Assembly: GCA_963717935.1 (NCBI GenBank)
Contig: CAVQXP010000004.1
Coordinates: forward strand, 64,001-128,000
Source: Candidatus Eiseniibacteriota bacterium
Lineage (GTDB): Bacteria > Eisenbacteria > RBG-16-71-46
Length of the DNA: 64,000 nucleotides
Direction of reading: 5' to 3'
Positions within the stretch are counted from its first letter, which is position 1, and each line of letters begins with the position of its first letter. The notes below the pieces were generated by a model, which ran no database searches, had not been told where the DNA came from, and saw only the letters and a program-made list of their open reading frames with translations. This document shows, piece after piece, positions 1-3,971 of this stretch. The position numbers and the translations under genes are program-made.

Positions 1-143
1 GCGATGAATGATGAGCTGCTGGAAGGTGCTTTCGCGATGTGGCGCCGGGGAGGTCCGCACGCCCGGGGACCTGAAGGCGGGACGTGCAGCGAGCGGGACG
101 CGACCCGCCAGTTCACGCGGTGGCGTCACCCGTTCACGTACCT
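1..143 (-). ncRNA. candidate small RNA (runs off window), similar to the 384-495 candidate
   Basis: No credible ORF; follows the sigma-28-like promoter. Shares ordered blocks ACGUGA, GGGUG(A)CGC, GGGUCGCGUCCC, ACCUCC and GCCA(U)CAUCGCG with 384-495. Confidence 0.4.
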
Positions 144-150
144 AGAGTAG

Positions 151-179
151 GTATCGGCCTGCCGGGTGTCAAGGTTGAG
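151..179 (-). promoter_or_regulatory. sigma-28 (FliA/SigD)-like promoter
   Basis: Minus strand reads CTCAAC-N15-GCCGATAC, compared with the sigma-28 consensus TAAA-N15-GCCGATAA. Confidence 0.5.
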
Positions 180-358
180 CCGGGGGTCGAGTGGAGTCGC
201 GGGGCCACCCTGGACCGGCCACTACCGTGCAGCCCGGGACGTGAGGCCTCGCGAAACGCGATGGAAGTCGTGCGTGCTTTCGCCCGCGCCTTCGCACCCA
301 GCGCGGGAATCCCGCGCCAATCGAGGGTAAAGCGCTTCGCGCGCAGGCAGGCGGGGCG

Positions 359-373
359 TGGCACACGGCTTGC
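359..373 (+). promoter_or_regulatory. sigma-54 -24/-12 promoter
   Basis: TGGCACACGGCTTGC; GG-N10-GC spacing is exact and the match to TGGCACG-N4-TTGC is near perfect. Confidence 0.75.
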
Positions 374-383
374 CCTCATACGG

Positions 384-495
384 ACGTGAGGGTGCGCTGG
401 GTCGCGTCCCACCTCCGAGCCTGCCATCATCGCGCGGCCCGCCACCCCCCAATCAATCGAGACGCCCCGGGTCACGAGAGGACCCGGGGCGTCTT
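384..495 (+). ncRNA. candidate sigma-54-dependent small RNA (~110 nt)
   Basis: Lies between the sigma-54 promoter and a 14-bp hairpin, with no plausible CDS. Contains the anti-SD-like CACCUCC. Confidence 0.5.
460..495. terminator. intrinsic terminator-like hairpin, possibly bidirectional
   Basis: agacgccccgggtc-acgagag-gacccggggcgtct, a perfect 14-bp stem between convergent units. Confidence 0.65.
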
Positions 496-542
496 GTCGC
501 TGATTGCCGGCGCGGTCCGGGCCCGCCGGGGCCCTCCCGGCC

Positions 543-1211
543 CTAGCGCACGCGGTGCGCCAGCGGGACGGTCACCTTCACGAGCGCGGGCTCCATCACG
601 CACCAGTCGGGCAGCGACTGGGCCGCGACCTGCACCCGCAGCGTGTCGCGCCGGCCGCCGAGCCGCACGGGCTCGAGCACCACGCTGTCCAGGCGCGCCA
701 CGGCCGAGCGCGGGCCGGTGACCAGCACGCTCTCGGGGTCCACCATGACGGCGGGGGTCCACGAGGTGTCGCTGCCGGCCGGCACTTCGATGCGGGGCGC
801 CGCGGGCAGCCAGCGCCGCATCTTGGGCTCGATGCCGATGTCGATGACGCCGGGTCCGATCACGCGGGCCGCCTCGACGCCTTCGTAACCGGCCAGTGGC
901 AGGTCCGCGGCGGACACCTCCCGCTCGAAACGGCCGGGGCCGATGCCGTCGAGGGAGATCTTGATGGGCGGCTCGGTGACGCGCATCCGCAGGAGTTGCT
1001 TGCCGGTCCCGCGCACCTGCGCCTGTACGGTGGAGGGCACCGGCCCCGAGAGCGAGAGCAGGTCCCCCAGGTCCTGGATCTGGACCGGGAACGACATCGT
1101 CATCTCGGCCGGGCGGTCGAGGTAGACGTTCAGGTAGACGAGCAGCGCCAGCAGCAGGGCAGCCAGCTTGAGTCCGAGGTTGTCGAACAGCAGCCCGCGC
1201 AGCAGGTTCAT
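543..1211 (-). CDS. YbbR/CdaR-like membrane-anchored protein
   Basis: True start MNLLRGLLFDNLGLKLAALLLALLVY overlaps the upstream stop (ATGA). Contains YbbR-type motifs VQVRG and DPESVLVTGPRS. Confidence 0.75.
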   Translation of the reverse strand: MNLLRGLLFDNLGLKLAALLLALLVYLNVYLDRPAEMTMSFPVQIQDLGDLLSLSGPVPSTVQAQVRGTGKQLLRMRVTEPPIKISLDGIGPGRFEREVSAADLPLAGYEGVEAARVIGPGVIDIGIEPKMRRWLPAAPRIEVPAGSDTSWTPAVMVDPESVLVTGPRSAVARLDSVVLEPVRLGGRRDTLRVQVAAQSLPDWCVMEPALVKVTVPLAHRVR

Positions 1212-2641
1212 GCCCGCTCCTCCCCCGCGCCCGCGGGCGCGTCGCCTTCGTCCTCGGCCGCCTCGTCCCCCTCGCCGGGCTTGCGCAGACCGTGGCGCTC
1301 CATGCGCGAGTATAGCGTGCGGCGCGTCAGTCCGAGCAGCCGCGCGGCCTGGCTCTTGTTGCCCCGCGCGCGCTCGAGCGCCTGGAGGATCAACTCCCGC
1401 TCCAGCACCTCGAGCGAGAGCCCCCCGGGCGGGATCTCGGGGATCCAACCGGGGGCCGCCGTCGCGCCGCGGGACACATCCTCGCCGGAGCCGACGAAGC
1501 CCAGGTGCTCGACATCGATGGGATCGCTCCCCGCCAGGATCATGGCCCGCTCGAGAGCGTACTCCAGCTCGCGCACGTTGCCCGGGAACGGGTGGCGCTC
1601 GAGTGCCTGCAGCGCCCGCGCCGTGAGCTTGTCTTCCGAGGCCCCGTGCCGGCGCAGGAAGAACTCCGCCAGCGCGCGCACGTCGCCGGACCGCTCGCGC
1701 AGCGGCGGGACGGTGATGGGGAACACGTTCAGCCGGAAGAACAGGTCCTCGCGGAACTGCCGCTCGCGCACCATGGCCTCCAGGTCGCGGTTCGTCGCCG
1801 CGAGGATCCGGACGTCCACGGTCAGGGGCTGATTGCCGCCCACGCGGGTGAAGGTCTTCTCCTCGATCACCTGCAGGAGCTTGACCTGGAGCAGCAGGGG
1901 CAGCTCGCCGATCTCGTCGAGGAAGAGCGTGCCCTTGGCGGCGTCCTCGAAGCGGCCGGGCTTCTGGCGCACCGCGCCGGTGAAGGCCCCGCGCTCGTGG
2001 CCGAACAGCTCGCTCTCGAGCAGGGCCTCGGGCAGCGCCCCGCAGTTCACCTTGACCCAGGGCCCGCCGGCGCGCCGGCTCGAGAAGTGGATGGCGCGTG
2101 CGAACAGGTCCTTGCCGGTGCCGCTCTCGCCGCGCAGCAGCACGGTGGAGTCCGTGGCTGCCACCTTGCGCGCCAGCTCGAGCGCGCGGGCGAGGGACGG
2201 CGCGGTGCCGACGACGGTGGTCAGGTCGCGGGTGAGCGAGTCCACCGTGTGCGTCAGCCGCTGGTTCTCCGAGGCGAGGTGACGCTCGCGGGCGGCCTTC
2301 TCGAGGATGGCCTTGAGCTCCTCGCGGAACTCGCCCTCCTTGTCCACGTAGTCGTAGGCGCCGAGCTTGAGCGCGCGGCGCGCCGTGTCCAGGCTGGCGT
2401 AGGCCGTCATCAGCACGACCGTGGTCGCCGGCCAGCGCTGCTTCACCTCGCCCAGCAGCGCGAGCCCGTCAGGCGGGGCCATGCGCAGATCGGTCACCAC
2501 GGCGTCGAACGCCGCCGCTTCGAGCCGGCGCAGGGCGGCCGCCCCGCCGTTCACGAACTCGGTCTCGTGGCCTGCGTCACGCAGCTCGAGCGCCGTGAGC
2601 TCGGCGTTGCGCACCTCGTCGTCCACCACCAGCACGCGCAC
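1208..2641 (-). CDS. sigma-54-dependent response regulator (NtrC family; REC-AAA+-HTH)
   Basis: VLVVDDE receiver, GESGTGKD Walker A, ELFGHERGAFTGA, LFLDEIGE and a C-terminal Fis-type HTH. Confidence 0.95.
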   Translation of the reverse strand: MRVLVVDDEVRNAELTALELRDAGHETEFVNGGAAALRRLEAAAFDAVVTDLRMAPPDGLALLGEVKQRWPATTVVLMTAYASLDTARRALKLGAYDYVDKEGEFREELKAILEKAARERHLASENQRLTHTVDSLTRDLTTVVGTAPSLARALELARKVAATDSTVLLRGESGTGKDLFARAIHFSSRRAGGPWVKVNCGALPEALLESELFGHERGAFTGAVRQKPGRFEDAAKGTLFLDEIGELPLLLQVKLLQVIEEKTFTRVGGNQPLTVDVRILAATNRDLEAMVRERQFREDLFFRLNVFPITVPPLRERSGDVRALAEFFLRRHGASEDKLTARALQALERHPFPGNVRELEYALERAMILAGSDPIDVEHLGFVGSGEDVSRGATAAPGWIPEIPPGGLSLEVLERELILQALERARGNKSQAARLLGLTRRTLYSRMERHGLRKPGEGDEAAEDEGDAPAGAGEERA

Positions 2642-2642
2642 G

Positions 2643-3971
2643 CTACGTCCCTCCCTGCGATCGCTTCCTCGGGAAGCGCACCGTACACGTGGTGCCGCGC
2701 CCCACCTCGCTCTGGATCCTCAGCTCCCCGCCCGCCGACTCCGCCAGCCGCCGGGCCAGGAAGAGCCCGAGCCCCGAGCCGGTGGCCTTGGTCGTGAAGA
2801 ACGGGCGGCCCAGCCGCTTCAGCGTCCCGGCCGGGATCCCCGCGCCGTCGTCGGCGATGCCGACTTCGATGCGCCCCGCCCGCTCGGCCAGGCTGACCGC
2901 GAGGCGGCCACCCCGTGGCATGGCCTCGAGGGCGTTCAGGATGAGGTTCAAGTACAACTGCTTCAAGGACTCGTTGTCCAGCGCCACCGGCGCGGTCTCG
3001 AGCTGGCCGGCGCGCTCGAGCGCCACCTCGCGCGCACGCAACTCACCCTGGAGCAGCTCGAGCGTGGCCTCGAGCGCCGCGACCGCGTCCCCGACCTCGG
3101 CCGCGCCTTCCGGCTCCCCCACGCCGCTGCCCCGCGCGAACTCGAGGTAACGCGCCACGGTGCGCGAGAGCCGGTCGGTCTCCTCGACGACGAAATCGGC
3201 CATGCGCTGGGCCTCGGGCTCGAGCCGGCCGAGCCGCTGGGCCGAACCCCGGATGATGGCGAGCGGGTTCTTGATCTCGTGCGCCAGGGTCGCCGTCAGG
3301 CGCCCCATGGCCGCCAGGTTCTGCGCGCGCGACAGGCGCCGCTCGAGCCGCGCCGCCAGCCAGGCGCCGCGCACCACGATGGCGGCGAGCAGGAGCACCG
3401 CCAGCATGGTGGCCGCGGCGATCAGGAGCAGGGTGCGACCGAGCTGCGAGACCACCGGCAGGTAGGCCGGGGCCAGCTCCACCGCGACCGCCCCCAGCAC
3501 CCGGCCCGTCTCGTCGCGGACCGGAGCGATGCCCGCGCGCAGCAACGTGCCCTCGTGCCGGTACGGGGCCGAGACCGCGGCCTCGCCGCGCAGCGCGCGC
3601 CGGAGCGCCGGGCCCGCAAGCGTGTCGAGGACGCTGGGCAGTCCCTCCGTGAACTCGGACTCGCGTGCGTCCACGACAACCACGCCGGCCGAGTCCACCA
3701 GCGATGCGTCGGCCACCCCGGTCGAGGCACGCAGGGTCACGAGCTGCACCTGGAGCGAGAGGTAGGCGCTGCCTTCTTCGCGCAGGCGGGCCTCGGCCAG
3801 GTCCGCCGGGCCGACCTCGCGCGCGGCGGTCGCGGCGATGCGGCCGATGCGCTGCTCGAACTCGGACTCGAGCGCGCCGGCCACGCGGTGCCAGGTGACC
3901 CACGTCGAAATCGCGGTGGCCAGGACCACCACGAGGGCGAAGAGGGTGATGAAGACCAGGGTACGCTGCAC
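2643..3971 (-). CDS. membrane sensor histidine kinase
   Basis: Two TM segments, LAHEIKNPL H-box, NLILNALEA N-box, DDGAGI and FFTTK..GSGLGL. Confidence 0.93.
   Translation of the reverse strand: MQRTLVFITLFALVVVLATAISTWVTWHRVAGALESEFEQRIGRIAATAAREVGPADLAEARLREEGSAYLSLQVQLVTLRASTGVADASLVDSAGVVVVDARESEFTEGLPSVLDTLAGPALRRALRGEAAVSAPYRHEGTLLRAGIAPVRDETGRVLGAVAVELAPAYLPVVSQLGRTLLLIAAATMLAVLLLAAIVVRGAWLAARLERRLSRAQNLAAMGRLTATLAHEIKNPLAIIRGSAQRLGRLEPEAQRMADFVVEETDRLSRTVARYLEFARGSGVGEPEGAAEVGDAVAALEATLELLQGELRAREVALERAGQLETAPVALDNESLKQLYLNLILNALEAMPRGGRLAVSLAERAGRIEVGIADDGAGIPAGTLKRLGRPFFTTKATGSGLGLFLARRLAESAGGELRIQSEVGRGTTCTVRFPRKRSQGGT

Follow-up and report, generated by a model that had tools for sequence, protein, structure and literature searches.

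A candidate sigma-54-dependent small RNA encoded back to back with the rho leader in a family of uncultured Eisenbacteria

At the left end of the window, that is, the whole stretch of 64,000 nucleotides analysed here (C4:64001-128000 of a Candidatus Eiseniibacteriota genome), two predicted transcription units diverge. An earlier note, made from the sequence alone, took both for small RNAs (sRNAs) of common descent, feeding a sigma-54 and a sigma-28 signal into the same mRNA targets through a shared ACCUCC seed. We asked whether the two units are related, what each of them is, and how an RNA made at this locus might act. The features of the region are collected in Table 1; positions are those of the window unless a contig is named.

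Table 1. Features of the divergent region and of the neighbouring genes.
Feature	Position	Strand	Basis
rho 5' leader, first 137 nt	1..137	-	rho downstream, TIGR00767; start site inferred from the -10 box
Sigma-70-type rho promoter, TTGACA-N17-TACTCT	144..172	-	motif coordinates; kept across the family
Sigma-28-type promoter, TCAA-N16-GCCGATAC, overlapping the sigma-70 box	151..178	-	genome-wide spacing class; FliA-type sigma
Conserved enhancer-like site, GTGCA-N17-20-TGCG-N3-CGCA type	227..260		some 132 bp ahead of the sigma-54 box
Sigma-54 -24/-12 promoter, TGGCAC-N5-TTGC; predicted start about 385	359..373	+	metagenome conservation; rpoN
Predicted small RNA of about 115 nt: long stem-loop, A/C-rich linker, terminator hairpin	385..500	+	conservation, covariation, fold
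Stem-loop, 390-407 paired with 432-447 around a C-rich loop of 24 nt (408-431)	390..447	+	centroid fold, covariation
Near-invariant loop core AGCCUGCCAUC, likely functional surface	418..428	+	conservation, unpaired probability
GC-rich terminator-like hairpin	458..496	+	covariation; weak U tail in the window copy
YbbR-like membrane protein gene, convergent with the RNA	543..1211	-	PF07949, E 1.1e-11
NtrC-family sigma-54 response regulator with GAFTGA, candidate activator	1208..2641	-	domain search, motif
Sensor histidine kinase	2643..3971	-	HisKA, HATPase_c

The left unit and its likeness to the right one

When the contig was continued leftwards, the minus strand was found to run unbroken from the window into rho, 220 bases away. 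The encoded Rho is a 427-residue protein starting at C4:63781 on the minus strand (TIGR00767, E 1.8e-217). The left unit is, almost certainly, the 5' leader of this gene and not an sRNA, an outcome which the earlier note had itself named beforehand as speaking against its reading. The whole leader measures about 355 nt and extends left of the window to the ATG at C4:63781. Nothing else about the left unit resembled a free-standing, terminated sRNA: the covariance model of the right unit did not match it, even with filters off, and its folding was no better than that of shuffled sequences (z +0.95). The extra hairpin ascribed to the left copy was likewise not borne out by this value, to be compared with z -4.48 against shuffles for the window copy of the right unit.

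The leaders of rho are C-rich, with C/G ratios of 1.35-1.94 in 24 of 24 leaders (above 1.2 in all), as expected for Rho autoregulation. A long C-rich leader between promoter and rho, the mark of an autoregulated rho leader, is present at this locus. Judged from its composition, the leader probably serves autoregulation by Rho, a mechanism documented in E. coli and elsewhere (available part of PMC6582626). Several short elements recurred when the rho leaders were read by eye (L002-L030), namely CCCCGGGCGCGCG...CTCCCC, CGAGGA and a GGCCAGC...CACGGCC stem. Contigs of relatives from RNA runs were also inspected (4 runs of 11 with small word shares; one study, strandless, with DNA as a possible source). 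One of them joins rho codons to the leader up to window position 16. A second contig of the same run (X2) starts at window position 379, and in X3 a contig spans the promoter region; these too are strandless contigs of relatives and may stem from DNA.

Promoters were assigned by means of the consensus sequences of the sigma factors. According to the box sequences, a family-wide sigma-70-type promoter of rho is overlapped by a sigma-28-type promoter limited to this genus. TTGAC was found 265-450 nt upstream of the conserved rho coding start in 24 of 25 related loci, the 25th offering only 199 nt of sequence, and was followed 16-19 nt further on by a -10-like pattern in 22 of 24 loci; one of the misses (L011) arose where the script cut at a second TTGAC. 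The strict promoter scan does not list TTGACA-N17-TACTCT at 172-144. As for the sigma-28-type box, the pattern T[CA]AA...GCCGAT[AG] occurs in this genome at 14 intergenic sites with a spacing of 16, the rho promoter among them, compared with 0-3 sites at each of the remaining spacings between 10 and 23; a FliA-type sigma is also encoded. Of the 24 rho leaders, 6 contain this box, and these 6 all belong to the present genus. A similar box (T[CA]AA-N16-GCCGAT[AG]) was seen upstream of csrA, near a FliA-type sigma gene (C2:334-341 kb).

Both promoter calls of the earlier note were upheld: the sigma-28-like box GCCGATAC at 158-151 fits a real promoter class of the genome, and the sigma-54 call for the right unit, TGGCAC-N5-TTGC at 359-373, agrees with a box present in 33 of 33 metagenome copies (see below). 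The overlapping sigma-70 promoter had escaped it. Its picture of two divergent transcription units under different sigma factors stands, with sigma-54 on the right and a sigma-28-type box on the left.

The claimed kinship of the two units fared worse. The shared blocks are indeed present at both sides: ACGTGA (384-389/139-134), GGGTG(A)CGC (390-397/131-123), an identical 12-mer (399-410/106-95), ACCTCC (411-416/54-49) and GCCA(T)CATCGCG (423-434/43-33). For an overall comparison, 380-500 (+) was aligned locally with the left unit. With lenient gap costs, 266 of 2000 dinucleotide shuffles scored at least as high as the best alignment, and so did 547 of 5000 windows drawn at random from the genome. 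Under BLAST-like gap costs, 103 of 2000 shuffles and 225 of 5000 genome windows scored as high. The 12-mer itself occurs 6 times in this 3.0-Mb genome of 71% GC. On the left, the 12-mer, ACGTGA, GGGTGA?CGC and GCCAT?CATCGCG were each found in 1 of 24 homologous rho upstream regions, that of this genome, and ACCTCC in 8 of 24. Blocks that fail to recur in relatives were a second outcome which the earlier note had named as telling against it. Among 48 copies of the right-hand RNA, ACCUCC, the supposed seed, was present in only 9, and the 12-mer also in 9; in the window copy, 9 of the 12 bases of the latter are stem-paired. The core AGCCTGCC, which is conserved in the right-hand RNA, was absent from all 24 left regions.

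The resemblance of the two units is thus very likely a matter of chance. Two sibling sRNAs that would carry sigma-54 and sigma-28 signals to the same targets via ACCUCC are highly improbable: the order of the blocks in this genome and the reality of both promoter types fit such a pair, but the similarity lies within chance, four of the five blocks are found in a single left region, and the left unit leads into rho with neither a model match nor a stable fold. A seed common to both units and a shared set of mRNA targets were not supported either. What remains of the sRNA interpretation is its right half.

Structure, distribution and promoter of the right unit

A DNA search of 60 relatives singled out positions 357-497 as the non-coding segment of the region that is conserved best. 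When 21 copies were aligned, two helices emerged, and the inner helix was paired in 94.8% of cases, compared with 33-52% in slid registers. Changes on both sides were observed in 11 of 21 pairs (5 of 10 in the inner helix and 6 of 11 in the terminator hairpin), a level that none of 500 shuffles reached, although kinship among the copies inflates this shuffle test. Across 48 distinct copies, 99 cells of the inner stem were G-U and 7 were A-C, indicating that the stem works as RNA of the + strand and not as DNA or antisense RNA. The loop core AGCCTGCCA was found in 42 of these 48 copies, with AGCCUGCCA as its near-invariant part; the copies had been chosen by promoter and a looser core pattern, so that counts for those two features lean high. 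The mean unpaired probability of the loop core was 0.68, versus 0.37 for the whole RNA. Next to the terminator stem, a stretch of 12 nt with 4 or more T was counted in 28 of 47 copies on the + strand and in 10 of 47 on the - strand. The strict terminator scan does not list the hairpin at 458-496, which may also end the convergent operon. A small peptide encoded on either strand was considered and rejected, since one-base loop indels between copies break the frame. The loop core (418-428) resembles the reverse complement of the sigma-54 box at 359-373 (AGCC and UGCCA), probably by coincidence.

The covariance model matched 49 of 59 genomes of one Candidatus Eisenbacteria family at E<0.001 and none of 91 other genomes of the phylum. 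Since 17 of the 59 belonged to the training set, the figure for the others is 32 of 42. This genome contains one copy. Ten weak matches, 7 of them from other families, had neither the sigma-54 promoter nor rho beside them; ten rho loci of other families gave no match to the model, and viral contigs gave 0 matches. Metagenomes provided 38 further loci, found by the loop pattern alone, and rho was divergent in 19 of the 23 with enough sequence; the metagenome and GTDB copies are related and come partly from the same taxa. In one genome of another family (G045, L099:2511 to the contig end), a sigma-54 box is divergent from rho, and the hairpin-like sequence after it is a different one, truncated where the contig ends. 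Genome G138 carries two copies of the sRNA, C106:243-365 (L070) and C55:23696-23818 (L077), both with a sigma-54 box. These are either true siblings under one sigma factor or the result of bin contamination.

The promoter pattern TGGCA[CT]-N5-[TCA]TGC was present 46-51 nt upstream in 33 of 33 metagenome copies found by the loop pattern alone (the 38 loci less one duplicate and 4 with less than 70 nt upstream). The enhancer pattern was detected in 29 of 47 copies, compared with a mean of 0.1 in shuffles, the pattern having been derived from these same copies; out of sample, it was detected in 25 of 32 metagenome copies. This genome encodes rpoN. Locus and genome together offer what is asked of a sigma-54-dependent sRNA, namely a box at fixed distance, an enhancer, rpoN, NtrC-type activators, and a conserved non-coding structure with a terminator. 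On these sequence features, the right unit is very probably a real sigma-54 RNA. The opposite view, that it is not a free RNA but the mere terminator of the convergent operon accompanied by DNA elements, draws on the hairpin, which could end the kinase-regulator-ybbR message. It is very hard to reconcile with the promoter, enhancer, loop and + strand wobble pattern, which are kept together even without an adjacent ybbR or rho, and likewise in the second copy of G138.

The identity of the activator is less clear. In 25 of the 28 genomes with a regulator match, the neighbouring NtrC-type regulator is encoded no more than 5 kb from the RNA (on another contig in the other 3; 2 of 30 genomes gave no regulator match), and we lean slightly towards this neighbour as the candidate activator. 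The choice is not fixed, because this genome encodes about 15 NtrC-type proteins, the order regulator-ybbR-rho also occurs in G038, a genome without the RNA, and a similar enhancer is found at pilA. At the sigma-54 promoter of this type IV pilin gene (C4:1883145-1883312, L148), an upstream site scores 25.3 on the enhancer matrix of the RNA, whose own site scores 21.5; among the pilin promoters of relatives, only 2 of 18 score above 15.

Possible modes of action

The reading that we favour on balance, with some reserve, is that of a rho leader and, back to back with it, a conserved sigma-54 sRNA candidate which pairs its C-rich loop with mRNAs without the help of Hfq, the blocks common to both units being due to chance. 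An NtrC-type activator, most simply the one encoded 0.7 kb away, would bind the site at 227-260 and switch on sigma-54 transcription at about 385. The resulting RNA of about 115 nt would display AGCCUGCCAUC in its loop, and the loop would pair with G-rich sites of the UGGCAGG type near ribosome-binding sites, repressing translation. In the other direction, rho would be read through its C-rich leader from its own sigma-70 promoter, and in this genus from the sigma-28 promoter as well.

That the RNA acts by base pairing appears reasonably probable by analogy, and an Hfq-independent sRNA with its seed in the loop is the most likely form of such action. A single conserved, unpaired, C-rich core is best accounted for by a seed that the loop exposes, sX13 being a case in point. 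Hfq was found in none of 61 family genomes; the combination of a conserved C-rich loop motif and a family without Hfq is that of the sX13 type. RapZ was not found in this genome (93% complete), which does encode CsrA and a KH protein of the KhpA/B type. No loop among the 48 copies contains GGA.

Targets were sought in several ways. Ranking duplexes in the single genome gave noise, and the loop core was not enriched near start codons in this genome. A search for a Shine-Dalgarno sequence with AUGGCAGG across 81 genomes gave 309 matches, and no gene recurred among the 30 loci read. Sites at ihf, dapA and nusG were not conserved beyond the genus (median percentiles 0.54, 0.30 and 0.37), and the start regions of the neighbouring regulator and kinase were only mildly favourable (0.17, n=8, and 0.25, n=5). 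Among 640 orthologue pairs with G020 (2.0 of its 4.16 Mb, with genes delimited by a rough caller written for the purpose), rbfA alone has retained an exact 7-mer site in the same position, over the ribosome-binding site; 588 of 2000 shuffled cores find an equally placed hit in this comparison. In 19 of 22 family genomes, and in 0 of 8 others, a TGGCAGG lies across the ribosome-binding site of rbfA (C4:1339193-1339210; L417-L446). The same bases encode Trp-Gln-Glu at the end of the upstream gene, the coding of which may explain their conservation. The median percentile of the rbfA site was 0.26. In G022, the rbfA site and the RNA loop both differ, yet about 10 pairs still form. No candidate of the whole set (ihf, dapA, nusG, rbfA, rho) passed the comparative test, and rbfA and rho are retained as weak leads.

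Conservation of the loop at the level of sequence, with no convincing mRNA target, would also suit an RNA that is real but acts as a protein decoy, its loop binding Rho, the KH protein or another protein that is titrated upon sigma-54 activation. The loop and linker are C-rich and G-poor, and the linkage to rho is tight (19 of 23 metagenome loci). GlmY is a precedent for a sigma-54 decoy RNA. Another is CrcZ, which binds Hfq (available part of PMC4063720). The right-hand RNA differs from what a decoy would lead one to expect in having one motif instead of repeats, and the 48 loops are free of GGA despite the presence of CsrA, in a setting with neither Hfq nor RapZ. Moreover, 24 unpaired bases are short for Rho loading. 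We regard a decoy as improbable, if the most serious competitor of base pairing with mRNAs.

Regulation of the neighbouring rho gene by the RNA was also weighed. The CCAU...GCCU of the loop could pair with the AGGC-N-AUGG start region, or the leader could be shielded from Rho, for which SraL of Salmonella is a precedent (available part of PMC6582626). Of 56 loci that have the RNA, 48 show AGGC ahead of the rho start and 1 shows AGGAG; for other genes, the counts are 67 and 48 of 476, and outside the family 6 of 9 rho genes have AGGAG. However, the duplex is weak (-12.3 kcal/mol), mismatched pairs of RNA and rho do as well (-12.4), and the median percentile is 0.63. The best pairing along the leader (-17.6) is no better than that of shuffled sequences (-18.8), and AGGC is kept in family genomes in which no RNA adjoins rho. 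Such regulation is quite unlikely. At the rho start itself (C4:63781 and relatives), AGGC(G) replaces AGGAG, and a CGCCUUCG hairpin with the potential to pair with this AGGC(G) is present in many leaders. A wider version makes the locus a three-sigma switch on termination, in which sigma-70 and sigma-28 read rho and a sigma-54 RNA fired by the two-component system sets the level or activity of Rho, either by pairing with the family-specific AGGC start region or by binding Rho via the C-rich loop. We consider this switch unlikely too, by a shade less; if true, it would amount to an Hfq-free, enhancer-gated RNA controller of Rho.

Comparison with known systems

The Rfam search of window positions 1-3000 gave nothing near a gathering score, the best hit over the RNA being Scr3920 (21 bits versus 88), and no match was obtained at the RNA in 8 loci. 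In the part of the published work available, the link between Eisenbacteria and small RNA was limited to CsrA, with nothing on this RNA. The main text of a 2026 preprint on prokaryotic non-coding sequence (bioRxiv 10.64898/2026.10.21.760802), in its available part, does not mention Eisenbacteria; its supplements could hold the motif. The right unit is likely a new sigma-54 sRNA candidate, spread over the family and of a kind already known, without an Rfam match. Its interest lies in a well-defined sRNA family carried by the majority of genomes in one family of an uncultured phylum, a family for which the search revealed no Hfq; promoter, enhancer, structure and invariant core have all been mapped. 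Should the RNA prove linked to Rho or to RbfA, it would connect sigma-54 signalling with global termination or with ribosome maturation.

On the left, the likeness to the autoregulated rho leaders of E. coli and others, and to SraL-rho, consists in the long C-rich leader before rho (PMC6582626, in its available part). The present leader differs by its overlapping sigma-70 and sigma-28-type promoters and lacks a conserved site at which the neighbouring RNA could pair.

GlmY and CrcZ, too, are sigma-54 RNAs with a two-component system next to them. The right unit is distinguished from GlmY/GlmZ by the lack of an Rfam match and of RapZ in this genome, and from CrcZ by the absence of the protein that would be titrated, Hfq (0 of 61 family genomes). 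In contrast to CsrB/RsmZ, it has no repeated GGA loop motifs (0 of 48 copies), CsrA itself being present. The Qrr sRNAs depend on Hfq, and the right unit departs from them in the absence of Hfq from the family, in being single-copy in almost all genomes and in having no Rfam match. It shares with Qrr and LuxO of Vibrio the activation, predicted for the right unit, by sigma-54 and an NtrC-type protein, and Qrr acts on ribosome-binding sites (PMC13501541, in part).

Closer in its control is Pxr of Myxococcus, a lineage-limited sigma-54 sRNA with the sigma-54 regulator Nla19 (part of PMC5568312). The right unit is like Pxr in its length, about 110 nt for Pxr, in having its own sigma-54 promoter, in being limited to one lineage and in lying downstream of a sigma-54 response regulator. 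Unlike Pxr, it consists of one long stem-loop and a terminator instead of three stem-loops, and it is convergent with the regulator and divergent from rho; RF01812 gave no hit over the cut-off and none at the locus. In its presumed action, the nearest known parallel is sX13 of Xanthomonas, 115 nt long with a C-rich loop motif, which represses mRNAs carrying G-rich motifs near start codons independently of Hfq (PMC3771888, in part). The right unit has one 24-nt loop with a complex core, where sX13, as far as that part of the source describes it, has three short CCCC loops, and it is preceded by a sigma-54 promoter. By analogy, the RNA would probably be controlled like Pxr or Qrr and act like sX13, standing as a member of none of these families.
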